Assembly: GCA_965227405.1 (NCBI GenBank)
Contig: OZ245758.1
Location: 3,124,338 to 3,188,337 of the forward strand
Source: Polyangiales bacterium
GTDB taxonomy: Bacteria; Myxococcota_A; Polyangia; Polyangiales; Houyiibacteriaceae
Direction: 5' to 3'
Length of the DNA stretch: 64,000 bases
The notes below the pieces were generated by a model, which saw only the letters and a program-made list of their open reading frames with translations, had not been told where the DNA came from and did no database searches. The position numbers were made by a program, and so were the translations under genes. Each line of letters starts with the position of its first letter. Positions within the stretch are counted from its first letter, which is position 1. Of the stretch, positions 3,433 through 59,563 are shown piece by piece.

Positions 3433-4326
3433 ATGGCGAAGAAGAAGAACATGCTTCCCGTGGCGAGTCCCTATCTCGTTCCCTTCGATGGGAGCTGGAA
3501 GATCGGTAAATCCTCGCAGCAACCGCCCAAAGGCGCGCCTTCTGGAAAGAAGGGCAAGAAAGAGAACCGCAAGGTACTCGAGGGGATCGTGGACGAGATC
3601 TACGAGCTGCAGCGCATGTTCTACGCACACGATCGCTTCTCGATGCTGCTCGTGTTCCAAGCGATGGATGCGGCGGGTAAGGACGGCACGATTCGGGCTG
3701 TGATGACCGGCATCAACCCAGCGGGTTGTCAGGTGCAAACGTTCAAGCGTCCGAGTACCGAAGAGCTCGACCACGACTTTTTGTGGCGGGTCGCGCGCAA
3801 GCTACCAGAGCGAGGGCGAATCGGGATCTTCAACCGCAGTCACTACGAGGAAGTCCTCGTGGTGAAGGTGAACCCGAAGATTCTCGAGTACCAGAAGCTG
3901 CCGAAGATTCATGAAGACGTGTGGCAGCGTCGGTACGACGCGATTCGGAACTTCGAGAAGCACTTGGCCGACAACGGCACAGTGATCGTGAAGTTCTTTT
4001 TGAATGTGTCGAAGGAAGAGCAGAAGGATCGTTTGCTCGCGCGCATTGATGATGAGCGGAAGAACTGGAAGTTCGAGTCCGGAGACCTGGACGTACGCGA
4101 TCAGTGGGATTCGTACATGAAGGCGTATCAGAAGGCGTTGAACGCGACGTCTCGACCCTGGGCGCCGTGGTACGCGATTCCTGCTGACGACAAACCGTTC
4201 ATGCGAGCAACGGTGGCAGGAGTGGTACGGGATACCTTGGCCGCGTTGCCCTTGAAGTACCCGGAGTTGGACGCGAAGCAGAAAGCGCAACTTGCGGAGC
4301 ATCGCGCGCGGCTCGAAGCGAGTTGA
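3433..4326 (+). CDS. ppk2: Polyphosphate kinase 2 (PPK2) family nucleotide phosphotransferase
   Basis: PPK2 hallmarks: LLVFQAMDAAGKDGT (Walker A-like) and GIFNRSHYEEV. About 297 aa. Confidence 0.85.
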   Translation: MAKKKNMLPVASPYLVPFDGSWKIGKSSQQPPKGAPSGKKGKKENRKVLEGIVDEIYELQRMFYAHDRFSMLLVFQAMDAAGKDGTIRAVMTGINPAGCQVQTFKRPSTEELDHDFLWRVARKLPERGRIGIFNRSHYEEVLVVKVNPKILEYQKLPKIHEDVWQRRYDAIRNFEKHLADNGTVIVKFFLNVSKEEQKDRLLARIDDERKNWKFESGDLDVRDQWDSYMKAYQKALNATSRPWAPWYAIPADDKPFMRATVAGVVRDTLAALPLKYPELDAKQKAQLAEHRARLEAS

Positions 4327-4456
4327 ACGAGAAGCGCGACAAGGAAGAGTTTCGTAAGGACGTTCGCTTAGTGGCGATCAGCCTAGGTTGTGCCGCGTTG
4401 TTGTTGGCGATTGTGATGATCGGAATAGCGATCCTGGGAACGCGCGGTGGTTAGCC

Positions 4457-4771
4457 ATGGATGAACGTGCGCAACTTCTCGAAAAGCTACGTCAGCGTGG
4501 TTTGGAGATCAGAGACGGCTATCTCCCGGCGCAAAACGGCTTCATGGTGACCGACCCCAGCACGTTCGAGAGTGTCACGCTGGTCTCGGATGTCGGTTTC
4601 GTGCAGGTGTACGAGGTCGACGACGGGTGGGAGTGCAGAGTGACTCAGCACGGCGGTCCGCATTGGATACACGCCGCGAATTCACTTGCCGAGATCGAAG
4701 CGATCGTCGCGGAATTCTTCAGCGACCCTCAACGACCTCCGAAGGGCGACGGGTGGATCGTCGACGAATAG
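4457..4771 (+). CDS. Hypothetical small cytoplasmic protein
   Basis: Internal ATG of ORF 4388..4771 (MDERAQLLEKL...). No recognisable motifs. Confidence 0.35.
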   Translation: MDERAQLLEKLRQRGLEIRDGYLPAQNGFMVTDPSTFESVTLVSDVGFVQVYEVDDGWECRVTQHGGPHWIHAANSLAEIEAIVAEFFSDPQRPPKGDGWIVDE

Positions 4772-4789: not shown

Positions 4790-4895
4790 GCCAACATTTT
4801 TGCCGGAAGTACGGGAAGGCTGGAAGGCGGGAAGGATGCCAAACCTTCCCGCCTTCCAGCCTTCTCGTACTTCCGGTAAAAAAATGGTCTCCCCG
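4790..4895. repeat. Palindromic MITE/REP-like intergenic element, copy 1 (33-bp stem with 32/33 complementarity, short loop, outer T-run/A-run)
   Basis: catttttgCCGGAAGTACGGGAAGGCTGGAAGGCGGGAAGGatgccaaaCCTTCCCGCCTTCCAGCCTTCTCGTACTTCCGGtaaaaaaatg. Lies between convergent genes. Confidence 0.65.
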
Positions 4896-4959
4896 CCAAC
4901 CACTTGACCGTCTTCGTCGCCTTGAAGTCTTCGAAAAACTAAATGGTCTACCCCGAGGA

Positions 4960-5835
4960 TCAGCGCTTCATCCGCGCCACGTGACGAATGATCGAACCCG
5001 CGACATCCAGTCGCGTCGTCCTTTCGATCCCTTCAAGACCCGGCGAACTGTTGATCTCCACCACCAAGGGACCGCGCTTGCTCTGAAGGATATCCACGCC
5101 CGCAACGCGCAGACCCACAGCCTCTGCCGCTCGAATCGCCACGTCCTTCTCTTCTGCGCTCAACTTCACAATGTCCGCCGTCCCGCCGCGATGCAGGTTG
5201 GATCGAAACTCACCCGCCTGCGCCTGACGTCGCATCGCCGCCACCACGCGCGTTCCCACCACGATGCACCGCAGGTCTGCGCCCGATGACTCTTCGATGA
5301 ACTCCTGCACCAACACGCCACTCGCCAAGTCGCGAAACGCTTCGATCGAAGACTCCGCAGCGTTCTGAGTCTCGCAAAGCACCACGCCGATGCCCTGCGT
5401 ACCCTTGATCACTTTTACAACCACCGGCGGTCCACCCACCGCGCGTACCAAGTCACCCGCATGAACCAGGGGACCTCGCCCGTACACCGTTGCAGGTACC
5501 GGCACACCCGCTTCTTCCAGAATCTGAAGACTCAGCATCTTGTCGCGTGATCGCAGGATTCCGTCCGAACTCACCGGCGTGAGCTTGCCCATCCGCTCGA
5601 GCTGACGAACCAGCGCAATTCCAAAGTGCGTCGCTGAAGCACCGATGCGTGGAATGAAGGCGTCGAGGTCGTCGTACGCGCGTCCTTGAAACGAAACCGG
5701 TGCAGGACCCGCGACACCCACGTGGCACTGCATGTAGTCAATGACGGAAACCTTGTGTCCTGCGCGACGACCGGCGTCGACGAGTCGGCGCGTCGAGTAG
5801 AGATCGATGCTCTGGCTGAGAACGGCGATCCGCAT
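4960..5835 (-). CDS. rimK: RimK-family ATP-grasp ligase (ribosomal protein S6 modification / alpha-L-glutamate ligase-like)
   Basis: Start MRIAVLSQSIDLYSTRRL. ATP-grasp blocks ...VVVKVIKGTQGIGVVLCE...VVEINSSPGLEG. The Ala/Ser/Gly-rich N-extension in the ORF track is the mirror of the opposite-strand repeat and is unlikely to be translated. Confidence 0.8.
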   Translation of the reverse strand: MRIAVLSQSIDLYSTRRLVDAGRRAGHKVSVIDYMQCHVGVAGPAPVSFQGRAYDDLDAFIPRIGASATHFGIALVRQLERMGKLTPVSSDGILRSRDKMLSLQILEEAGVPVPATVYGRGPLVHAGDLVRAVGGPPVVVKVIKGTQGIGVVLCETQNAAESSIEAFRDLASGVLVQEFIEESSGADLRCIVVGTRVVAAMRRQAQAGEFRSNLHRGGTADIVKLSAEEKDVAIRAAEAVGLRVAGVDILQSKRGPLVVEINSSPGLEGIERTTRLDVAGSIIRHVARMKR

Positions 5836-7950: not shown

Positions 7951-10900
7951 AGAGAGCCTCCTGTCGGATGGTGCGGATCACTGGATAGGTCGCGGGGTCG
8001 GCGGTCGCCGCGGTCAACGTGACGCTCACTTCCATGAACAATCCGTGCGGCATGCCACCGGCTGTCAGGAGTGAACCGACGTCGACACCGCAGTAACTCG
8101 GTGCCACACCGTCACGTGGTGGGCAGATCACGGAGCCGCGAGAAACCTGTTCGGTGATCGTGACGGCTTCAAAGTCCAGGCGGCTCAGGGCGTCGAGCGT
8201 TTCGGCGCTACGCACACCCACTTCAAGTGAGCTGCCATCTGGAATCGAGGACTCCCACATGAACCAAGTCCAGGTTGGCCGTTCGGGCGGAACCATGCAG
8301 AGTTCTTCCGCAGCGTAAACAGCGGTGAACGTGCCGCTTGGCGGTTCGGGTTCAACACACACGCCGCCGTCTAGGTACATGTGAGGCGGGCAGATGCACG
8401 CGCCCAGCTCGCAGACAGCCCCTCCATCGCAAGTGACCCCGTCGCATGGATCGCTCGCAGCGGGACACGGAAAGTTGGCCTGCACCATGGCGCTTCCGTC
8501 GGCGAGGAAGTTGTCGCACCAGCTCCCTCGAAGTTCGATTCGGTTTTCACCAATGGCGACCCATCCATCGTCCGGGCTGCATGGAACCATCATTGAGTTG
8601 AGACTCAGGCTGCCCCCACCGCATGCGCCACGGCTTAGGTCGATCAGTCCGGAGAGGTCGAGCGCGCAACTGAGTTGCGAGGTGATGAGATCGGTCAACT
8701 CAGTCCGCAGCTCTGCGGCGGAGGTGACGGTGAAGTACGTTGCACCGCTATCCACACCTGCGCCCGCGTTGGCGACGGCTTGGAGGTGGTCGACAGCAAT
8801 GTCCTCGTCGATCGACACGACAAACGTCGGGAAGCCCGCATCGAACGCTTCCGATACGCGGTCGACCACCGCGTCTCGGCCGTAGTTGTCGGTTCCGCGA
8901 CACCCGTTGGGCTCTCCATCGGTCGCGAGGATGAGTGCAGTTGAGCCGGTCGGAAGCAGACCGCTTACACGCTGATCGACGAGCCAGTCGGTGGCTTGTT
9001 CGATCGCATCTGCGGTGGGCGTGCCTCCTCCGGGGCTCTGCGAGGAGATGAACGTGTTGAGTGTGTCACGAGCGTCGAGCTGGAGCGTACTGGTGCCCTC
9101 CAGCACGTCGCTGCATGAGCTTCCGCGGTACGTGCGCATGGCAAAGCGGACCTGGTCTTGCAGATTGGTGATCACGCCATCGCTGGCGTCAAACAACGCT
9201 TCCTTCATGCCCTCCCAGCGCGAACCGCCACCGGACCATCCCCAGTTCATGCTTCCCGATTGGTCCATGATGATCAGGAAGTTGGGGGGAACCGGTTCGG
9301 CCTCGAAATCAAGCGATGCGCATGTGCGCCCCGTGGTGGAACAACAGCCGAGTAAACAGATTTCTCCACTCGAGCAATCTGCGTCGCCACCACACGACGC
9401 TCCAGTCGAGCACTCGGGTCCACCGCAGTCTGCAGGCAGATCGTCGACTGTCTTGCCCAAGCAGAGCTCGCAGCGACCGCATTCGTTGATGCACTCGCTG
9501 CTCTGCGTGCACGTGGTGCAGAACCGCGGGTCATCGATCACGTCCAGCGAGCAGCTGTCCGCGATCATCACATGCGTCGTGGTGCCGTCGTCGAGTTCGA
9601 CCGCACAGCAACCGAAGCAGTCGCAACCGTTCGGAGCCAACGGCGCGCAGAACGCGAGACATCGGTCTGCAACTTGGCATGAAGAGTCCGAAGCGGGACG
9701 CTCACCCGTAATGCACTCGGTGTGGTAGCGGCAGCCGTCGTCGCCAGCACCGGAGTTGCCGTCGAAGAAGCAGTCTTGCCAGAATGGGTCGCGATTGTCG
9801 CCCGGGATGCCCGTTCCAAAGGAGCCTTCGTCGTTGTCATTCGGCCCGGTGCACTCCGGATCTGCACCGTCGATGAGTCCGTCTCCTTCGTCGTCGCGAC
9901 CGTTGCTGCATGCACATCCGTCCGCGGGACAGTGGTCTGGGACCACGTCGGAAAGACCGTCCCCGGAGCCACCGCTGCCGTCGATGCTGAACGCTCCGCT
10001 GAGCGAACAACCACTCGCGGGAATGACGATTCGTACCGGAACCGCCGAGACGACTGCGCTTGAGCCCCCGGTGTCTTTTCGCGAGAGGTGCAGCTCGAAA
10101 TCGAAGACCCGTGGTGTGTCCGTCGCGGGAATGGTCGCATTGAGGAACGACACATCAAACAGCACCTCGGTATCGCGAGCACAGTTGGTGACGCTGGTTG
10201 CGGACTGCCCGGCGCAGTGTCCGTCAACAGAGACCACGTCGATGCCAGCAACCTCGCTCGGTGTAAACGGAAGCCCTGAGCCGACGAACTCAGCGCTTAG
10301 TTCTCGGTAGGTCGAACGCCCACTGGGAAACACGTAGCGAAGTTGGGTGCTGCTGGGAAGAGCAGGTGGTGTGTACGCCGTCAGTGACTCGGCCCCACTT
10401 GCGCAACCGACGAACTCGGTGGCACCGGCAGCATCAGGACAGTCGTCCGCTACATCGACGATTCCGTCCGCGTCGCGATCCGCCATGGTTTCGCAGGCAT
10501 CCCCTGTGGGAGGCGGACCTGCGGGTGTACCTGTGAAGCCACCCATTCCGTCCACTCCGTAGGCGCCGTGTGCGTCACACCCGATCGGTGGAACCACCAC
10601 GACGACATCGTACGTGCTTCGACTGGTACGCGTTCGTGGCGGGCGCGTCGTGCTGATGTCTTGGACGATTGAAACTTCGAAGCGGTACACCTGCGGTGTT
10701 GCCGACGCTGCGATCGTTCCGTCAAACCGGAGTCGGAATGCAACTCGGGCATCCATATCGCAGGAGGAGAACGTTTCGGCTCCTGTGGTTCGACAGAAAC
10801 CAGACGTAGGTCCCTCGGCGACCCACTCGGTGACAAAGCCAGGATCGCCATCGACTTCGAACGAGACTTCCGTGGTCGCTTCGGGCAGCTGGAGCGCAAC

Positions 10901-11980
10901 AAGAGCTTCGGCGTTCGCGCCTTCGGGTAGGATCGCACTGACCCGCTCGGCACCACTGAGACAGCCACCGAACTGTGGCGAACCGACCTCAAGCGGACAC
11001 ATGTCCATGGCGTCGGGCATGCTGTCGCCGTCGCCGTCGACCAAGTCACCGCAGGGGCCGTCGGTTCCAGGCGGAAAAATCACACCGCGACCGTCCATTC
11101 CAACAGCTCCTGCCGTGTCGCAGTCTGCGGCGGGAACGATCACGCGAACTAAGCCCTGTGCATTGGTGCTGCCGCCGTCGTTCAATCCGACTTGATGATC
11201 AAAAAGTTGTGCGTCCGCGGTTTGAGCGATCACGCCTTGGTTGCGGAGGGTGATCACAAAACGCACTCGGGTCCCTGGGTCGCAGTCGCGGAAATCGGTG
11301 GACGTTTGTGACCGACAACTTCCGCTCATCACCGAAAATGTACGAACCCGGACCAGTAGGTCGGGGTGTGGTCCCATCAGTTCAAGTTCAACGTCGGAAC
11401 CTCGTGCGCCGACAACGAGATCGGCGGCGACGCTGTACTCGCGAGGCCGGTCTGGAAGAATTGCGACCACGGCTGCATCGCCACTGGTGCACCCTAAGTA
11501 CTGAGCGCGGCCTGCCTCGTCGGGGCACTCGTCGCCAATGTCGGGCACCCGGTCCGCGTCTTCGTCGGGCGAGCAGCTTCGTGGAACGTCGGGAGGCTCC
11601 AAGGTGATGCCGCCACCCGGTGCAGTCGTGGTTCCTTCCCCGTCGCTTCCCTCAGGCTCACCGGTGACCTGTCGACAACCTGGGTTGCAGTCGTAGCAAG
11701 CCTGTTCACTTTCGATCAGCTCTTGGCTCACGCCCATCACGTCCTCGAGGACGTACGTCGTGGCATCGAGACACTCCGTCCACGCTCCCCCTTGACAGAA
11801 GCGCATGCCGGAACGGCAGGTGAGTCCGTGTTCGCTTTGCTCCACCTTCTCGTGGCACTCGATCGCCGTGCCTTCGACACAGCGGCAACCTTCTGCAGGT
11901 GTGGGACATTCGGGCGCGTCGACGAACGAGGTGTCCCAGCACGCCGTCGTAAACACCAGGGCTAGGAAGAACGAGCGCAT
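7934..11980 (-). CDS. Giant (1348 aa) secreted protein with TSP3/MopE-like Asp-Cys calcium-binding repeats and a C-terminal von Willebrand factor A domain
   Basis: N-terminal hydrophobic MRSFFLALVFTTAC. Repeats DADRVPDIGDECPD, DGDGDSMPDAMDMCP, DRDADGIVDVADDCPD. vWA with MIDAS LIIMDQSGSM...ATDGEPN. Confidence 0.8.
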   Translation of the reverse strand: MRSFFLALVFTTACWDTSFVDAPECPTPAEGCRCVEGTAIECHEKVEQSEHGLTCRSGMRFCQGGAWTECLDATTYVLEDVMGVSQELIESEQACYDCNPGCRQVTGEPEGSDGEGTTTAPGGGITLEPPDVPRSCSPDEDADRVPDIGDECPDEAGRAQYLGCTSGDAAVVAILPDRPREYSVAADLVVGARGSDVELELMGPHPDLLVRVRTFSVMSGSCRSQTSTDFRDCDPGTRVRFVITLRNQGVIAQTADAQLFDHQVGLNDGGSTNAQGLVRVIVPAADCDTAGAVGMDGRGVIFPPGTDGPCGDLVDGDGDSMPDAMDMCPLEVGSPQFGGCLSGAERVSAILPEGANAEALVALQLPEATTEVSFEVDGDPGFVTEWVAEGPTSGFCRTTGAETFSSCDMDARVAFRLRFDGTIAASATPQVYRFEVSIVQDISTTRPPRTRTSRSTYDVVVVVPPIGCDAHGAYGVDGMGGFTGTPAGPPPTGDACETMADRDADGIVDVADDCPDAAGATEFVGCASGAESLTAYTPPALPSSTQLRYVFPSGRSTYRELSAEFVGSGLPFTPSEVAGIDVVSVDGHCAGQSATSVTNCARDTEVLFDVSFLNATIPATDTPRVFDFELHLSRKDTGGSSAVVSAVPVRIVIPASGCSLSGAFSIDGSGGSGDGLSDVVPDHCPADGCACSNGRDDEGDGLIDGADPECTGPNDNDEGSFGTGIPGDNRDPFWQDCFFDGNSGAGDDGCRYHTECITGERPASDSSCQVADRCLAFCAPLAPNGCDCFGCCAVELDDGTTTHVMIADSCSLDVIDDPRFCTTCTQSSECINECGRCELCLGKTVDDLPADCGGPECSTGASCGGDADCSSGEICLLGCCSTTGRTCASLDFEAEPVPPNFLIIMDQSGSMNWGWSGGGSRWEGMKEALFDASDGVITNLQDQVRFAMRTYRGSSCSDVLEGTSTLQLDARDTLNTFISSQSPGGGTPTADAIEQATDWLVDQRVSGLLPTGSTALILATDGEPNGCRGTDNYGRDAVVDRVSEAFDAGFPTFVVSIDEDIAVDHLQAVANAGAGVDSGATYFTVTSAAELRTELTDLITSQLSCALDLSGLIDLSRGACGGGSLSLNSMMVPCSPDDGWVAIGENRIELRGSWCDNFLADGSAMVQANFPCPAASDPCDGVTCDGGAVCELGACICPPHMYLDGGVCVEPEPPSGTFTAVYAAEELCMVPPERPTWTWFMWESSIPDGSSLEVGVRSAETLDALSRLDFEAVTITEQVSRGSVICPPRDGVAPSYCGVDVGSLLTAGGMPHGLFMEVSVTLTAATADPATYPVIRTIRQEALCVPEE

Positions 11981-17989: not shown

Positions 17990-18705
17990 CGCCTACGCGG
18001 GCACCACGATCGCGCTGAATACCCTCATCCGTGTGCGGCTTGGGAAGACGCTTTCGCTCGCGTCCTTCCCTTTTGCTTCGTGGGCATGGGCAAAGGCAGG
18101 GGCAGGTTTACCAGGACGACCCAGGGAGTGAGCTGCTCTTACCTCGAGCAGCCTGCGTCTCGCCGATACGTCGTCCGCGTCCACCGACGTGCCCATGCCC
18201 ATGCCCATGCCCAGACTAAGGAGGACGATGGTTAGCGAAGAACCGGGGCCTATCCCCATTCTCCTCTTCCTTTTCCCGCGTTGCAGTTCGAATGACGCTC
18301 GGCTTCGGGGAAGTTCTGTTCGAAGCGTTGGACCTATCGCTATCTGCTTCTAGGGAAGAGGAATAGGAAGGGAAAGGTCCGTTTGTGCGGGACGCTCTGC
18401 GTCGCATGGCTTGGGAAGACGCGTTCGCTCGCGTCCTTACGTCGTCCGCGTCCACCGACGTGCCCGTGCCCGTGCCCATGCCCATGCCCACCAGACTAAG
18501 GAGGACGACGCCTAGCGAAGAACGGAGGCCCTGCACACCTATCCCATTCCTCTTCCTCTTCCTCTTCCTTTTCCCGCGTTGCAGTTCGAATGACGCTCGG
18601 CTTCGGGGAAGTTCTGTTCGAAGCGTTGGACCTATCGGAATGCGCCCACCAACTACTCAGTCACCACGATCGCGCGTGAGAACGCTGAATACGGTCGCCT
18701 ACGCG
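17990..18705. repeat. Complex non-coding direct repeat: two ~280-bp units (unit 1 carries a ~105-bp insertion) plus a partial third, with internal (CATGCC)n and (CCTCTT)n microsatellites and inverted CTCTTCC/GGAAGAG arms
   Basis: Unit core cgtcgtccgcgtccaccgacgtgcccatgcccatgcccatgccc...actaaggaggacga...ccttttcccgcgttgcagttcgaatgacgctcggcttcggggaagttctgttcgaagcgttggacctatcg is present at ~18166-18338 and ~18440-18638 with few mismatches. caccacgatcgcgc...gctgaatac occurs at both ends. Confidence 0.65.
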
Positions 18706-26787: not shown

Positions 26788-27363
26788 ATGCGAGCAGTAC
26801 CGTGGATGTTGTTGGCGTTGGTGTTGGCGTGTGGTGATGACGACAGCGCGCCGGGTTCAGACAGTGGAACCCGGCGCGACTCGAGCTCCGGCGTGGACGC
26901 GATGTTGCCGAGTAGTTGTGACGACGGCCCTTTGGCGCTGCCCATTGAAGGCTGCAGTCCGACGCCACCACCATCCACAGGTGACCCTGCACAGGATTGC
27001 GTGAACCGCATCAACCAGTTGCGTGCCGAGTGTCAGTGCCTACCGCCACTCGGCCGTTGGACCGAGGGCGAGAGCTGCGCCGAAGAACACGCGGAATACG
27101 ACAGCACGCGTAGTCCGCACGACGGCTTCCGCGACGGCATCTGCGAGAACGGTGGGTTTGGTCAGAACGAATGTCCGGGATGGGGTTCGATCGACCAAAC
27201 GATTTCAGGATGTTTGCAAGCGATGTGGGACGAAGGTCCGGGCGAGGATTTTCAGATGCATGGGCACTACCTGAACATGACCAACTCGCGTTTTAGCGAG
27301 GTTGCGTGTGGTTTCTACACAACGTCCGATGGGCGTGTGTGGGCGGTGCACAACTTCCGCTGA
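26788..27363 (+). CDS. Lipoprotein with CAP/SCP (PR-1-like) domain
   Basis: MRAVPWMLLALVLACGDDD lipobox. VNRINQLRAEC...GHYLNMTNSRFSEVACGFY resembles CAP-domain motifs. Confidence 0.5.
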   Translation: MRAVPWMLLALVLACGDDDSAPGSDSGTRRDSSSGVDAMLPSSCDDGPLALPIEGCSPTPPPSTGDPAQDCVNRINQLRAECQCLPPLGRWTEGESCAEEHAEYDSTRSPHDGFRDGICENGGFGQNECPGWGSIDQTISGCLQAMWDEGPGEDFQMHGHYLNMTNSRFSEVACGFYTTSDGRVWAVHNFR

Positions 27364-27394: not shown

Positions 27395-27525
27395 GCGGCA
27401 TTCCGCTTCGCGGATCTGGAAGCATGGAAGTTCGGGAGTACGGAAGCTCAACGCATGGGCCCAAAAAAAAATCTGTTTCGCTTCCAGGCTTCCCCCCTTT
27501 CGATCTTCCAGGATAAAAAATGAAT
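27395..27525. repeat. Degenerate copy 2 of the palindromic GGAAGG-type MITE/REP-like element
   Basis: ctggaagcatggaagttcgggagtacggaagc...cccaaaaaaaaa...gcttccaggcttcccc...cttccaggataaaaaatg. Shares the CTGGAAG/CTTCCAG arms and A-run with copies at 4790 and 35148. Lies between convergent genes. Confidence 0.45.
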
Positions 27526-27542
27526 CGCCCACCAAACCAGAG

Positions 27543-29117
27543 CTAACGCCGCTCGAGTATCAGCAGCTCTGGCTGCGCGCACTCGCTACAGATCGTGTAC
27601 GGGTCACTGCTAAAGCGCGCAGCCACATCGAACTGCGGACTGTGCACCAAGCGTGGAAACCAGCTCTCGAAAATCACGTAGTAACGCGGCTGCGTATCGC
27701 GAAGAATCGTTTCGAGTTGCCCGTCGATCACGCGATGATCGTTGAGCCCGACCAAGTCCACCACGCGGCGCTTCCCAAAGAGCCGTACGGCACCGGCGTC
27801 GTTGCTCGCGACCCACTCGGACTCGTCGGTTCGCTCACGGAGCCACTCCGCAGCCGCAACGTTCATCTCGACGATGTTGCGGCAGTTCCCTGCGTACTCC
27901 GGAAGCAATACGACCGTCCCGGCAATCGCCACCGCAACGATCGCAGCTGCGGCAGGTTTGAGGATTCGCTCGGTCAGCACCGTACCGATCAGGATCCACA
28001 CGAAAGGCCGAAATACCCATCCGTAACGCGCCCAATAAAAGCCGTCGTACTCCGCCAGGTCGTGCGCCCAGGCGACACCAATCGGCGCGACCAGCACCAT
28101 GGCACCGAGCAACATTGCTTGAGGATCGCGTTCGTTGAATGCTCGTCGCAGTGCCAGCGCGATCAGCGGTAAGAGCAAGAGCCCGAGTGCAAACCCGCCG
28201 AGCACGACGAGGTAGGCCACGTGGACATCACGCCACTGCGTTGCGAAGTCTGTGACGTGCTTCGCGTAGAACGTCGTGGGCAGCGCGCGGTTGGTCGCAT
28301 GCATGCACCACAAACTCCAACCCCCGAGCGTAACCACCGAAGGCAACCACAGTTCCGTATGGGGACGTAGTCCGTGCGGACCCGAACCTGCCTCCTTTGA
28401 GTCCGTTTTCTCCGACGTTCCGCGATGCTGCCAGAACGCCCACGCCACCACGAGCGCGGTGACCAGGAGCATCTCGGGTCGCGCCAAAGCAGCCAGTCCA
28501 AAGAGGACGCCGGCAACGCGCCGACGTTCGGCAAAGAGCGCAGCCATGGCTCCCGCTCCAAGCGCACACGCGAGCGACACTTCCATCCCCGACACGCTTC
28601 CGAACACCAACGCGGGATCGAGCGCGAGTGCCAAGCCAATGACCAGTGCTGCGCGCGGGCTTCGGGATCGAATCGCCGCGTCACCAGCAAACGCGGTCAA
28701 CGCACCCAGCAGCGCACCAAGTACTTTGGTCGCGACGATGGGCGTGCTCATGCCCAAGCGATGAAAGATCGCCAACAAGAGCGCCCACAAAGGACTGGTG
28801 CTTCCGGCTGCGGGAGTCTCGGGGTTGTACGCGAGCCCTTCGCCATACGCGATGCCCTCGGCGTACACGTGGTGGATGTATGCGTCGTCGAGCGGAAACC
28901 CGATCGCTGCGTAGCCAGACATCGCGACAAAGAGCGCGCTGACCCCACCATGGACCAACGCATAGAGCGCCAGCCGTTTGCGCCAATCGTCCAAGCCCTC
29001 TCCATACTGCCGATCCTGGCAGCGGCCAAGTCCGCGCGATGCCTCAGGTTTTGCAGGTGTTGGGGAGCAACCTCGGCCAATGTCGTATATGCCCACCATG
29101 AGACTCGCGCTGGCCAC
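27543..29117 (-). CDS. Polytopic integral membrane protein, possible GT-C-fold glycosyltransferase (ArnT/PMT-like)
   Basis: At least 10 predicted TM helices. First periplasmic loop FPLDDAYIHHVYAEG is reminiscent of GT-C DD/DE motifs. Start uncertain: it overlaps the divergent neighbour's start by ~20 bp. Confidence 0.45.
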   Translation of the reverse strand: MASASLMVGIYDIGRGCSPTPAKPEASRGLGRCQDRQYGEGLDDWRKRLALYALVHGGVSALFVAMSGYAAIGFPLDDAYIHHVYAEGIAYGEGLAYNPETPAAGSTSPLWALLLAIFHRLGMSTPIVATKVLGALLGALTAFAGDAAIRSRSPRAALVIGLALALDPALVFGSVSGMEVSLACALGAGAMAALFAERRRVAGVLFGLAALARPEMLLVTALVVAWAFWQHRGTSEKTDSKEAGSGPHGLRPHTELWLPSVVTLGGWSLWCMHATNRALPTTFYAKHVTDFATQWRDVHVAYLVVLGGFALGLLLLPLIALALRRAFNERDPQAMLLGAMVLVAPIGVAWAHDLAEYDGFYWARYGWVFRPFVWILIGTVLTERILKPAAAAIVAVAIAGTVVLLPEYAGNCRNIVEMNVAAAEWLRERTDESEWVASNDAGAVRLFGKRRVVDLVGLNDHRVIDGQLETILRDTQPRYYVIFESWFPRLVHSPQFDVAARFSSDPYTICSECAQPELLILERR

Positions 29118-33633: not shown

Positions 33634-35067
33634 GTGAGACCCGGCTGGTTCGAGATCTCGCATGAGGGATGGCGGCGTCGTTCGACGCAGCGAAGCCTGG
33701 GGCGTTTGCTTCTGGAAGGCGTCCAAAATGCGTTTGATGCCCGGGCATCGACAGTGGAGGTCTCGCTCGGTCGCAAAGAGATTGTGATCGAAGATGACGC
33801 GCGTAGCGGTATGGCCGACGGGCGTTTGGTCTACACGGTCTTCCTCAGCAACAAGCAAGAGGACCCCTCCCAACGAGGGCGTCTGGGGCGCGGGCTCAAA
33901 GAGCTGATCGTGACCATGGACGAAGCCATCGTCGAGGCGGTGGGCATCACCGTTCGCTTCGATGAGACGGGTCGCCACGAAGAGCCGAACAAACGCGAGT
34001 CGGGTACGCGCATTGTGCTGCGACGAAAGTTCGAAGCGTCTGAGCTTTCGGATGCCGTGCGCTACTTGCGCTTGTGCATTCCCCCCAAGGGGATTCGCCT
34101 TCTTGTGGATGGTCGTGCCGTTCGACGACCTCGCAGTGTGATCTCGTTGGGATCCTGTGAGCTCGAAAGCGTCGAAGTCGAAGATGGTGTGGAGCGTGCG
34201 GTTGTGGGCGCAACCACAGTGGCTCTCTATCAACCGCGCAAGGGACAGGACGCGTATCTCTTTGAGATGGGTGTGCCGATCGAGTCGTGGGATGTGCCCT
34301 GGCACGTTGACGTTGGTCAACGCGTTCCGCTTCTCGATGGACGTGATGGTGTCCCGGATCGGTTCAAGCTTCGACTCAAGGCGTTGTTGTTGGAATCGAT
34401 GATCCATCGGTATCTGGAGACCAAAGACCTTCGCGCGGATTGGGTGCACGACGTGATCGCGCGTTATCCGGTCAAGACGTCAGTGCTTGATGCGTTCGTG
34501 AGCCGTGCGTTTCCGCGGGGAGCGGTACTTGGGGGGACGTCGCGAGCCAACGACCGTGCGCGACAGTTGGGTGCGCACGTGATCGATACGTCGGCGATCA
34601 GTGATGGCGCGTACGTGGGGCTCAGCCGTGTCGTTGAGACCGCAGATGATTTTGTTCGGCGTCGTTCAGCCGAGTTTGGCGGTGAAGACGTCGAACCGGA
34701 CGAAGTGCAACGGCGGTTCGCCGAGTCGGTACGTTGGTTGGCGCGACGCGTGGCTGGACGCGTGGTTCGGGTTCGCTTTTTTGCGCGCGATGCGTCGGAC
34801 GCAGGGCTGCTCGAAGATGCGACCTGTGACGCGGACGCCCGGGTGATCTCGTTCAACGTGAAGGGTCCGTTGCGTTTCGACGATATTTTGGATCCGTCCA
34901 CGTTGGGTGTGGTGCTGCATGAGATCGCACACCTCGAAACGTTGGAGCACGATCTGCGTTTTATCGATCGCTTGCAGACCTTGGCGGGGATGACTGCGAA
35001 GGTGCTCGCGGAGGGTGGACCAGCGTTGGCGAAGGCGTTGCGCCGTGGTGATCCGGATCGGCACTAG
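33634..35067 (+). CDS. Hypothetical protein with N-terminal GHKL/Bergerat-fold ATPase-like motifs and a C-terminal HExxH metallopeptidase-like motif
   Basis: LLEGVQNAFDA (E-x3-N-x2-D N-box), GRLGRGLKE (GxxGxG G2 box), and VVLHEIAHLETLEH near the C-terminus. Confidence 0.45.
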   Translation: MRPGWFEISHEGWRRRSTQRSLGRLLLEGVQNAFDARASTVEVSLGRKEIVIEDDARSGMADGRLVYTVFLSNKQEDPSQRGRLGRGLKELIVTMDEAIVEAVGITVRFDETGRHEEPNKRESGTRIVLRRKFEASELSDAVRYLRLCIPPKGIRLLVDGRAVRRPRSVISLGSCELESVEVEDGVERAVVGATTVALYQPRKGQDAYLFEMGVPIESWDVPWHVDVGQRVPLLDGRDGVPDRFKLRLKALLLESMIHRYLETKDLRADWVHDVIARYPVKTSVLDAFVSRAFPRGAVLGGTSRANDRARQLGAHVIDTSAISDGAYVGLSRVVETADDFVRRRSAEFGGEDVEPDEVQRRFAESVRWLARRVAGRVVRVRFFARDASDAGLLEDATCDADARVISFNVKGPLRFDDILDPSTLGVVLHEIAHLETLEHDLRFIDRLQTLAGMTAKVLAEGGPALAKALRRGDPDRH

Positions 35068-35147
35068 AGGGTGGGGGAGTTTTCATTTTTCGAAGACTCC
35101 AAGATGCAAAGAGCGCAAGTTGAGTTGTCTTCTACTTGGTGGTGGTT

Positions 35148-35262
35148 CGATTTTTTTAACCGGAAGTACTGGAAGGCTGGAAGACGGGAAGGTTTTGGCT
35201 CCTAAACCTTCCCGCCTTCCAGCCTTCCCGCACTTCCGGTCAAAAAAATGTTGGCGATCCCA
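35148..35262. repeat. Palindromic MITE/REP-like element, copy 3
   Basis: atttttttaaCCGGAAGTACTGGAAGGCTGGAAGACGGGAAGGttttggctcctaaaCCTTCCCGCCTTCCAGCCTTCCCGCACTTCCGGtcaaaaaaatg. Confidence 0.65.
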
Positions 35263-35402
35263 TAGGCCTCAAAGCGACTTCGGTGCACGGAGGATAGCCA
35301 GCGTCGCGAACCATCGTTTCCATTCCCTTTCCCATTCCCATTCCCGCCCAGCCGTCTGGTGAACGTGATGGGATAGGGCGCCAATGCCGCTACAATCGAA
35401 GT

Positions 35403-36113
35403 ATGAGATTGGCTTTGGGGATGGGTCTCGCAACGCTCCTGGCGTTCGCGGGTTGCGGCGATGACGACGGCACTGCCGATGCAGGTCGCGACGCAGGTAC
35501 GGCGGATACCGGCGGCAGCGACACGGGCGGCGCAGACACGGGTGGTGCAGACACAGGCGGCGCGGACACAGGTGGCGCGGACACAGGCGGCACAGACACA
35601 GGTGCAGATACGGGTGGTGCAGACACGGGTGGCGCGGACACAGGTGCTTCCGACGCGGGCTCAGGATGTGAAACCGACTCCGACTGCACCGTAGGTGACG
35701 AGTGGTGCGTCGAAGGCGCGTGCGTGCCGTGCGACAACTCCGGACTGCTTTGCGACATCGCCTGTTCGTTGGGATGGACGACCTACATGCGCAACGGCTG
35801 CTCGCCTTGCGAATGCGCGCCGCCGAACCAGTGCACGAGTGACGCTGAGTGCGAAGGCGACAGCACGTGCGTCGCCGGCGAGTTCTGCTGGGATTGGTGC
35901 CCTGAAGACGACCCGAGTTGTTGTTTCGGAAACACCTGCGTGGCTCCGGGGTGCGAAGGTCCGCCCCCGGTTGGCTGTCGGCAACGTGGTTGTGCCCCGG
36001 GCGGAACGTGCGAGGAAGACACCGGGTGTGCTCCAAGCGGTTGTGGTTGCTCGGACGGTGCATGGATCTGCACAAGTGATTGCAATGGAGGAACCTGCTC
36101 CTTCCCCGAGTAA
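35403..36113 (+). CDS. Lipoprotein with (DTGGA)n tandem pentapeptide repeats and a Cys-rich C-terminal domain
   Basis: MRLALGMGLATLLAFAGCGDDDG lipobox. ~11 copies of the 15-nt repeat ggcgcggacacaggt encoding GADTG. C-terminal 30+ Cys. Confidence 0.6.
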   Translation: MRLALGMGLATLLAFAGCGDDDGTADAGRDAGTADTGGSDTGGADTGGADTGGADTGGADTGGTDTGADTGGADTGGADTGASDAGSGCETDSDCTVGDEWCVEGACVPCDNSGLLCDIACSLGWTTYMRNGCSPCECAPPNQCTSDAECEGDSTCVAGEFCWDWCPEDDPSCCFGNTCVAPGCEGPPPVGCRQRGCAPGGTCEEDTGCAPSGCGCSDGAWICTSDCNGGTCSFPE

Positions 36114-36300
36114 GGTCTTGTCTTGTGAAGACTCTTGCGCTGAGCAGAGCGACCTCCGCTTCTAGGGAATAGGAAAAGGAAGAGGAAAGGGCCGTTTGGG
36201 CCGGACGAGCAGAGACCGCCCGTTCCTATTCCTATTCCTTTTCCCGCGTGGCGATTCGAGTCAGGCCGGCGTCGGGGTCTTCCCAAGCCCAGCCAAAACA

Positions 36301-59082: not shown

Positions 59083-59382
59083 ATGCGTTTCCTCGTCCCG
59101 ATCGTTGTGCTCGCGTTGCCCTTGGTGGTTCTTGCTGCGGATCAGACCGAAGTGCCGAGTTGTGTGGAGGTGACGAAAGAAGCGCCCTACCAGGCGTACG
59201 GTCACACCCACATCGTGGTGATCCGAAACGGGTGCGACGAAGCGGTGCAGTGCCGTGTGGCGACGAACGTGGATCCGGAAGAGCAGCGGGTCACGGTGCA
59301 GGCCGGCGAGACCTCGCGAACGGCAACACGGAGGGGAAGCCCGTCGCGAGAGTTCGACGCGAGGGTGAGCTGTACGGAGTAG
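59083..59382 (+). CDS. Small secreted protein, hypothetical
   Basis: MRFLVPIVVLALPLVVLAADQ signal. 4 Cys. Confidence 0.4.
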   Translation: MRFLVPIVVLALPLVVLAADQTEVPSCVEVTKEAPYQAYGHTHIVVIRNGCDEAVQCRVATNVDPEEQRVTVQAGETSRTATRRGSPSREFDARVSCTE

Positions 59383-59563
59383 GTCGCTCTATTTTTTAGT
59401 GGAAGTTTCGAAGGCGCAAGACTCAAGGTGAGCTGTCATTTTCATGGGTACCTCGGAGTCGCGACACCCAGATTTAATTTCGGTCTACCGCGCTCTCTTT
59501 CGTCTGGGCCTCCCTCGACTTCGAATCTTCCACAAAATTAATGAATAGAGCGTAAACCCACAC

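Follow-up and report, generated by a model that had tools for sequence, protein, structure and literature searches.

The window, that is, the whole 64-kb stretch of DNA analysed here, is rich in kinase, MopE and FHA-sigma54 genes and carries a palindromic repeat at three intergenic loci. The source names of homologues place the host, a member of the Myxococcota, near the Sandaracinaceae, and the gene content is in keeping with this. Copy 1 lies between ORF 4388–4771 on the + strand and rimK on the − strand (stop at 4960), copy 2 between a CAP-domain gene (+, stop at 27363) and a gene for a 524-aa membrane protein (−, stop at 27543), and copy 3 after a GHKL-ATPase gene (+, stop at 35067) and before a lipoprotein gene (+, start at 35403). 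The ORF coordinates agree with the preliminary description of this DNA, in which copies 1 and 2 were placed between convergent genes and copy 3 downstream of a + strand gene. Three of four loci have the convergent setting: those of copies 1 and 2, and the copy-3 locus in the form found in the sister species contig L092. Gene calls were made without a crude GC3 gene caller, which is unreliable at 61% GC.

ORF 4388–4771 has 127 codons, probably encodes a 104-aa protein starting from MDERAQ, and has no Pfam or PADLOC match. It is missing in all relatives without copy 1; its gain thus belongs to the ~0.5-kb expansion of the spacer that also added the hairpin element. The lipoprotein gene (35403–36113) encodes the lipobox LAFAGC, a Cys-rich C-terminal half and ~12 GADTG-type pentapeptide repeats, the latter derived from a 15-nt tandem array in the DNA (35469–35675).

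Architecture of the repeat unit

The hairpin of copy 1 spans positions 4797–4882, with arms at 4797–4835 and 4844–4882 and a loop at 4836–4843, and reads T5-GCCGGAAGTACGGGAAGGCTGGAAGGCGGGAAGG, loop ATGCCAAA, complement and an A-run that continues to 4884. Its arm is made up of T5, GCCGGAAGTAC and three GGAAGG octamer units. Within the 33-nt core CCGGAAGTACGGGAAGGCTGGAAGGCGGGAAGG, 32 of 33 positions are paired, the same value as reported before, and the T5/A5 runs lengthen the stem to 39 nt, with the two arms being 95% complementary. The hairpin of copy 3 spans 35150–35249 with arms of 46 nt (35150–35195 and 35204–35249) and, as in copy 1, a loop of 8 nt (35196–35203); its core is paired at 30/33 positions, slightly better than the previous estimate of about 29/33. 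Copies 1 and 3 are therefore near-perfect palindromes, and the term "perfectly palindromic" used in the preliminary description is too strong for either of them.

The predicted minimum free energy (MFE) of copy 1 as RNA is −85.1 kcal/mol for the + strand and −78.6 kcal/mol for the − strand (z −14.5 and −12.1), with none of 200 shuffled sequences matching its RNA fold energy, and folding as DNA gives −48.9 kcal/mol (z −13.2). The corresponding RNA values for copy 3 are −72.1 (+) and −83.5 (−) kcal/mol, with z of −10.7 and −12.0. A mismatch-tolerant inverted-repeat scan of the 64 kb returned three strong hairpins: copy 1, copy 3 and a third one at 36165–36245. Long hairpins like those of copies 1 and 3 are absent from most gene ends in the window, and the repeat is therefore not the general terminator of this lineage. 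Copies 1 and 3 match each other with an nhmmer E-value of 1e-18. With at most two mismatches allowed, GGAAGGCTGGAAG has 11 matches in the window against 1.6 expected, 10 of which fall inside the three loci.

The four to five transition mismatches of the stems all give G:U on the + strand of copy 1 and on the − strand of copy 3, and A·C on the opposite strand. This is a weak hint of strand-specific RNA pairing, which would arise by chance with a probability of ~1/8 and in which one mismatch is common to both copies. The G:U-compatible strand at copy 3 is antisense to the upstream gene. ORF 35269–36075 on the − strand was considered as the upstream gene for this strand and rejected as an antisense artefact, since it is R/C/P-rich and the + strand lipoprotein ORF has a lipobox.

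Each arm carries four tandem GGAAGNNN boxes placed 8–9 nt apart (4+4 GGAAG boxes per hairpin), at offsets 2, 11, 19 and 27 with spacings of 9, 8 and 8 nt; the hairpin thus amounts to two short tandem arrays in inverted orientation. Its ends consist of a T-run and then (A/G)CCGGAAGTAC. The outer arm ends at 4802–4811, 4868–4877 and 35159–35168 read (A)CCGGAAGT, which is identical to the consensus site of eukaryotic ETS domains. The match is almost certainly a coincidence, and of note only in that the GGAA core is the conserved box.

A more degenerate copy had been noted near 27395–27525, and this is borne out by a profile match with an E-value of 4.5e-5 and by its GGAAG/CTTCC boxes, of which 104 nt contain six exact ones where 0.36 would be expected (P 2e-6). 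This copy 2 (27413–27553) has a purine arm at 27413–27450 and a pyrimidine arm at 27479–27516 with the boxes at exact 8-nt spacing, and its fold is no better than that of shuffled sequences (z −0.8 and −0.2). It keeps 38/40 box positions and 4/20 spacer positions, and the complementarity of the spacers between its arms is 1/10, in a comparison that was anchored on the boxes and is hence partly circular. In all probability, copy 2 is a genuine member of the family of copies 1 and 3 that has decayed and retains just the GGAAG boxes.

Alignment of copy 1 (−) with copy 3 (+) covers an E module, the hairpin and an outer flank, with the homology beyond the hairpin being one-sided and ~80 nt long; the homologous unit is thus larger than the ~105 bp proposed previously. 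The order of the unit is E module (a T-run plus CGAAGACTYCAAG), T-run, hairpin and A-run-TGTTGGC. The E-module core TTTTTCGAAGACTYCAAG, an 18-mer, occurs exactly twice in the window, at 4921–4938 (−) and 35086–35103 (+), and A-run-TGTTGGC beyond the hairpin also has exactly two occurrences. In copy 1 the E module (4885–4959, −; 18-mer TTTTTCGAAGACTTCAAG) lies directly after the rimK stop, and in copy 3 (35083–35149, +; 18-mer TTTTTCGAAGACTCCAAG) it begins 16 nt past the ATPase stop. The outer flank GCCAACA at 4790–4796 (TGTTGGC on the other strand) is common to copies 1 and 3 and sets the − orientation of copy 1 equal to the + orientation of copy 3. Copy 2, whose E-to-hairpin order runs on the − strand, has the same orientation by profile match, and retains the T-run and a proximal E remnant (TTGGTGGGCGATTCATTTTTT, 27516–27540, −) that abuts the stop at 27543. 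A solo E-like module (TTTTTTAGTGGAAGTTTCGAAGGCGCAAGACTCAAGG, 59374–59447, +) is located after a + strand ORF and has no hairpin, the match being weak (E 0.005). The linker between E module and hairpin is poorly conserved and ends in TTGG.GG.G. GAAG/CTTC also recurs inside the E module (GAAGACTTC). No convincing common secondary structure of the E module was found from four sequences.

Read from E module to hairpin, all copies begin 0–21 nt past a stop codon on the same strand (that of rimK, the 524-aa membrane protein or the GHKL-ATPase). The flanks of the dispersed copies are unrelated to each other, and the only ORFs that overlap the unit are spurious ones. The repeat unit is thus a polar, mosaic and non-coding element of ~175–190 bp. 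The preliminary description overlooked the E module, the polarity, the tandem octamer boxes in the arms and the conservation relative to a sister species.

Other repetitive elements occupy nearby spacers. The third strong hairpin belongs to a ~160-bp block at 36135–36295, between the lipoprotein and PolX genes, which is bounded by inverted CTTG(T/G)GAAGAC and is missing in L092 (30-nt spacer) and in the relative L102 (12 nt). The arms of this hairpin, GGGAATAGGAAAAGGAAGAGGAAAGGG and TTCCTATTCCTATTCCTTTTCCC, have a period of 6 and form 5-bp GGAA/TTCC helices with one mismatch per period. The region 18040–18640, between two − strand genes, consists of two tandem units of ~271–298 bp. These hold hexamer arrays (GGGCAT/ATGCCC and TTCCTC/GGAAGA) and an exact duplication of 78 nt (18262–18339 = 18560–18637); their modules in common with the 36135–36295 element are repeat families D7, D8, D11, D13 and D14. 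A further module, a TTCCC/TTCCT hexamer array with CCCGCG..GCCGT behind it, is found 40–85 nt upstream of the lipoprotein start, at 35318–35366 in the window and at 3768–3810 in L092, and the window module is related to family D7 (18255, 18553 and 36223). Beside copy 1, the motif GGGAGAC(C/T)ATTT..TTTTT occurs twice, at 4877–4894 and 4934–4955.

Distribution among relatives and conservation in a sister species

Copy 1 is present in the same strain (L014) and in a 99% strain from another run (L081). In relatives with 83–84% RimK identity (L015/L016 and L082–L091), the rimK–PPK2 spacer is 105–117 nt long and holds neither a hairpin nor ORF 4388–4771. In L102/L103, from the same relative genome as L015/L016, the ATPase–lipoprotein spacer measures 9 nt against 335 nt in the window, and the lipoprotein–PolX spacer 12 nt against 188 nt; the L102/L015 genome is without copy 1 and copy 2. 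Relatives at 68–84% protein identity thus have spacers of 9–117 nt at the corresponding sites, and the orthologous sites are polymorphic: empty in L015/L016/L102/L103 and L082–L091, occupied in L081 and partly occupied in L092. About 67 kb of DNA of the relatives contains one strong hairpin, which is unrelated to the repeat.

As a palindrome, the exact 21-nt arm was found neither in 185,579 species genomes nor in the JGI metagenomes; in both collections the matches were lone arms or octamer arrays, all from unrelated taxa. The exact arm has no match in viral contigs, in which four 18-mer matches are presumably due to chance, and a literature search for the arm sequence returned unrelated primer matches only. 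Rfam gave 0 matches at the gathering threshold, and permissive searches gave sub-threshold models of eukaryotic miRNA precursors, which are generic long hairpins. Since the spacers of relatives are short and free of hairpins and the collections hold no palindromic copy, the repeats are insertions at gene 3′ flanks that took place in the recent ancestry of this Sandaracinaceae-like myxobacterium and are confined to a narrow lineage. The earlier suggestion of a dispersed, lineage-specific, non-coding palindromic repeat therefore holds, both at the orthologous sites of relatives and, for the palindrome, in the genome and metagenome collections.

The Logan short-read contigs L014 and L081 end inside a hairpin arm, and L093 ends at the T-run that opens an E-like sequence; the repeats fragment short-read and k-mer assemblies of this lineage at defined points. 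In an 84% relative, L017, three direct repeats CTCCGTCCCCAATT(GTA) followed by GGGAGACTATTTTTTT and the contig end are found after rimK (10897–10945); these repeats are similar to TCTCCGTS, the class-2 unit of Geobacter.

Many bacteria of soil and sediment that are unrelated to each other have period-8 arrays of GGAAGGCN. Among 62 distinct matches, 31 have at least five units and the longest has 18, although the search pattern spans 2.6 periods and had no control octamer, which makes the recurrence an unquantified lead. At ~12 loci (e.g. Sorangium L010, L062, L050, L054, L035, L044, L067 and L070) the array forms a hairpin with a complementary CCTTCC array, with the purine arm being 5′ in seven of the eight scored. 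Some of these hairpins lie right after stop codons, and some arrays are just upstream of start codons. Those in L010 (Sorangium sp. So ce1014, 583–655), L062 (147–215), L050 (1593–1681) and L054 (11340–11402) have GGAAGGCN arms and AT-rich loops, and several begin a few nucleotides past a stop codon; they are without the T-run/A-run, the CCGGAAGTAC end and the E module of the window family. In soil metagenome contigs, GGAAGGCN/CAAGGNNG arrays are found in conserved contexts (L020, L026, L038, L041, L051, L073 and L040; L028, L032, L075, L079, L080 and L063), one context being directly upstream of a ATGATGTTTGA... start and the other between "cgataatag" and "gttaacNgttaacgaga", which suggests leader-region arrays in some uncultured lineage. 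As a lead, the GGAAGGCN arrays may be related to the long G-rich simple sequence repeats (SSRs) of large GC-rich genomes (PMC4692102).

The copy-3 locus is also carried by L092, an NCBI metagenome-assembly contig whose ATPase gene is 97% identical to that of the window at the protein level and ~88% at the DNA level. The two sequences agree at 39/42 positions in the E core, 36/37 in the right arm and 35/39 in the distal flank, giving 110/118 (93%) for the repeat in total. In the adjacent gene, identity is 57% at four-fold degenerate sites, 64% at all third positions and ~75% at third positions of the last 200 nt. Given the 57% four-fold-site identity, the similarity of the right arm alone would arise by chance with a probability below 1e-6. 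It follows from 93% in the repeat against 57% at four-fold sites that at least one copy is constrained and not decaying, and the copy-3 block is therefore under purifying selection or else homogenised through exchange between copies. In L092, 75 nt are missing, comprising the distal E module, T-run, left arm and loop; the gap may reflect the true loss of one arm or a fault of the assembly, and the join differs from the outcome of a simple de Bruijn-graph collapse. The distal flank of copy 3 (GTTGGCGATCCCATAGGCCTCAAAGCGACTTCG, 35250–35282, +) is kept in L092 and synteny is lost right after it. At this very edge, a 727-bp segment with an ankyrin-repeat gene on the − strand (L092 3126–3852) is inserted, so that the repeat marks a synteny break.

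These observations bear on whether the repeat is a purely selfish foldback-type MITE, i.e. a non-autonomous element whose repetitive inverted arms serve as transposase-binding sites and which has no host function. We regard this as a possibility of rather low probability. The repeat is small and non-coding, well below the MITE size of ~500 bp at ~175–190 bp, and has long inverted arms of tandem sub-repeats as in foldback/Galileo terminal inverted repeats (TIRs; PMC3573991); its copies are dispersed with unrelated flanks, the family is lineage-specific and polymorphic in presence among relatives, and in L092 a synteny break with a gene insertion lies at its edge. However, 93% identity of the orthologous copy against 57% at neutral sites is not predicted by the neutral decay of a dead MITE, and the polar mosaic departs from a plain TIR-core-TIR structure, as the 39–46-nt inverted arms are not strictly terminal and the E module lies outside them on one side. 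No direct repeat that could be a target-site duplication (TSD) was found at the hairpin or at the E-plus-hairpin boundaries of copies 1 and 3, nor on comparison with the short-spacer site of L102, two copies giving low power. The main ORFs of the 64 kb include no transposase or RAYT gene. A miniature mobile element, as the preliminary description had it, thus gains no support from the search for TSDs or a transposase; the selfish foldback MITE accounts for the dispersal of the repeat and not for its conservation.

Candidate roles of the hairpin and of the GGAAG boxes

A GC-rich hairpin right after stop codons and between convergent genes might be taken for a canonical bidirectional Rho-independent terminator. 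The T-run before and the A-run after the hairpin on both strands had been described correctly, and this layout is the reverse of the A-tract/hairpin/U-tract order of such a terminator. With an A-run and not a U-tract 3′ of the hairpin on either strand, the repeat is not a canonical intrinsic terminator, in line with the previous view. Moreover, terminator scans make no call at the hairpins and the 39–46-bp stem is far beyond typical terminator stems, which leaves this explanation with hardly any probability.

We tentatively propose, with confidence somewhat short of even, that the repeat acts at the RNA level as a 3′-end hairpin, by analogy with other intergenic repeats. The role in RNA stability or termination raised in the preliminary description is plausible. 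A transcript from either strand would have the same U-run, a hairpin of ~−80 kcal/mol and an A-run. Such a stable hairpin would block 3′-to-5′ exonucleases, and would hinder read-through between the neighbouring, mostly convergent genes. The upstream U-run may also pair with the emerging A-run and pull it from the fairly weak rA:dT hybrid, and some non-canonical termination through this U-run/A-run pairing is conceivable, if speculative. Comparable RNA functions have been suggested for repeats of the REP/BIME and ERIC type and for the long U-less hairpins of other GC-rich bacteria, and effects on mRNA stability have been reported for ERIC-type repeats. The stem z-scores of −10.7 to −14.5 and the start of the units just past stop codons are favourable to an RNA hairpin, and so is the finding of stop codons directly followed by hairpins with this inner arm in unrelated bacteria, e.g. 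L062, L036 and L044. Several points count against it: no U-tract is present 3′ of the stem, two to three copies are seen in the window, and copy 2 has lost its stability while keeping its boxes, which fits a factor that reads the boxes better. The nearly intact arm of L092 without its partner also counts against a role of the hairpin alone, as long as the deletion is neither very young nor an artefact of assembly.

The last two points lead to the question of whether the boxes are what is read. The GGAAG boxes, ~one every 8 nt and four per inverted arm, may be a putative array at the DNA or RNA level for an oligomerising protein, in which case the perfect palindrome of young copies would be incidental to the way in which the element forms. 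This is the main and a serious rival to the RNA hairpin, though of rather low probability. MetJ binds tandem 8-bp metboxes, ParG binds ACTC boxes and omega binds heptads. In copy 2 the boxes are kept (38/40) at exact 8-nt spacing with randomised (4/20) and non-complementary (1/10) spacers, but the anchoring of this test on the boxes makes it partly circular, and copy 2 could also stem from independent growth of an octamer array. The neighbouring hairpin at 36165–36245 pairs box-to-box only (GGAA/TTCC) with a regular mismatch in each period, the single arm of L092 is conserved at 36/37 in the absence of its partner, and GAAG/CTTC recurs in the E module. In Geobacter metallireducens, 24 lineage-specific inverted site pairs with four tandem octamers each have been read as regulator sites (PMC2700814), and the reader of the GGAAG boxes may by analogy be like the putative "global regulator/IHF-HU" factor proposed there. 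On the other side, no candidate binding protein was found, and a location at gene 3′ ends instead of promoters is odd for an operator.

A bolder form of the box explanation, which we hold to be improbable, is that the GGAAG boxes and not the hairpin are functional, the inverted four-octamer arrays being operator-like pads for a putative oligomerising DNA- or RNA-binding protein of the lineage, and that the GGAAGGCN array hairpins of soil bacteria have arisen convergently and make up a class of array-built palindromes, so far undescribed, that obey one physical logic. If this were true, the shared logic could be that of a U-less terminator, or else that of a palindrome with Chi-like G-rich octamers pointing outward from a central break.

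Comparison with known repeat systems

Returning to the repeat as a whole, its best reading is an inserted intergenic repeat similar to ERIC, REP and foldback elements. Several other classes were tried and rejected. A retron or defence-system ncRNA does not fit the housekeeping neighbours (PPK2, RimK, RimO-like, PolX and AstB) and the lack of a reverse transcriptase, and PADLOC on the window gave only a weak match to a TmtA-like ATPase; an integron attC, a CRISPR or a tRNA-linked att site does not fit a locus without tRNAs, array or R-box-like ends.

ERIC/IRU, RU-2/YPAL and the Correia repeats of Neisseria (reviewed in PMC3184786, PMC2229807) resemble the window repeat in size class (100–170-bp imperfect palindromes), in folding as a hairpin over the whole unit, in their lack of coding capacity, in their co-transcribed intergenic position at gene ends and in their presence or absence between relatives. 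The window repeat differs from them in having no sequence similarity and no TA target duplication, and in its GGAAG octamer arms, its one-sided E module and its Myxococcota host.

REP units are imperfect palindromes of 20–40 nt that bear an unpaired tag, GTAG or CGTC, at one end and go together with a RAYT (PMC3733652). REP/BIME/REPIN elements share with the window repeat their hairpins, their location downstream of genes, their mosaic arrangement with short modules in the spacer and their lineage specificity (PMC3733652, PMC2817692). Were the repeat a REP/REPIN family moved by a RAYT transposase, this would agree with its build as an intergenic hairpin doublet of ~90–100 nt that is found past gene ends, for the most part where ORFs are convergent or co-directional (cf. 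PMC3733652). However, the arms here are purine-rich octamer arrays without internal dyad and not 20–40-nt palindromes, the ends are a T-run and then (A/G)CCGGAAGTAC in place of a GTAG or CGTC tag, and no RAYT gene was found among the main ORFs of the window. A REP-type repeat, the other class put forward in the preliminary description, is hence very improbable.

The paired class 1–3 sites of Geobacter metallireducens, read as sites of a global regulator or of IHF/HU (Aklujkar et al. 2009, PMC2700814), are the closest architectural precedent. They too consist of three to five tandem 7–9-mers on one strand that are paired with a like array on the other, and are intergenic, multicopy and absent from the sister species (PMC2700814). 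The likeness is architectural only, their motifs being GTTGCTYN, TCTCCGTS and MTYCTGA against GGAAGNNN in the window (PMC2700814). Furthermore, the Geobacter arrays lie at variable distance from each other, whereas those in the window abut as a tight hairpin with T/A-run clamps (PMC2700814).

Long inverted arms of short tandem repeats are also found in the foldback transposons FB and Galileo of Drosophila, which are eukaryotic, of kilobase scale and equipped with a known transposase and TSDs (PMC3573991, PMC4079207), none of which was seen for the window repeat. The GGGAATC heptamers of Xanthomonas and Nostoc resemble the window arms as G/A-rich tandem units of 7–8 nt that are intergenic and near an ORF end (PMC4692102). 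Different from these long G-rich SSRs, the arms here have three to four units, form an inverted pair and belong to a dispersed unit with unique flanking modules (PMC4692102).

Small palindromic repeats of Myxococcota are barely catalogued, and this family is a concrete and datable case. Being absent at 68–84% protein identity, present at 97–99% and conserved far above neutral sites, it is useful for studying the domestication of repeats after insertion. The reversed T-run/hairpin/A-run layout together with the octamer-box arms offers a clean test both of hairpin function versus box function and of transcript termination by U-less hairpins in GC-rich bacteria. Compared with the systems above, the repeat is a new family within the known class of small palindromic intergenic repeats, distinguished by its unusual octamer-box/foldback build and its reversed T/A-run layout.
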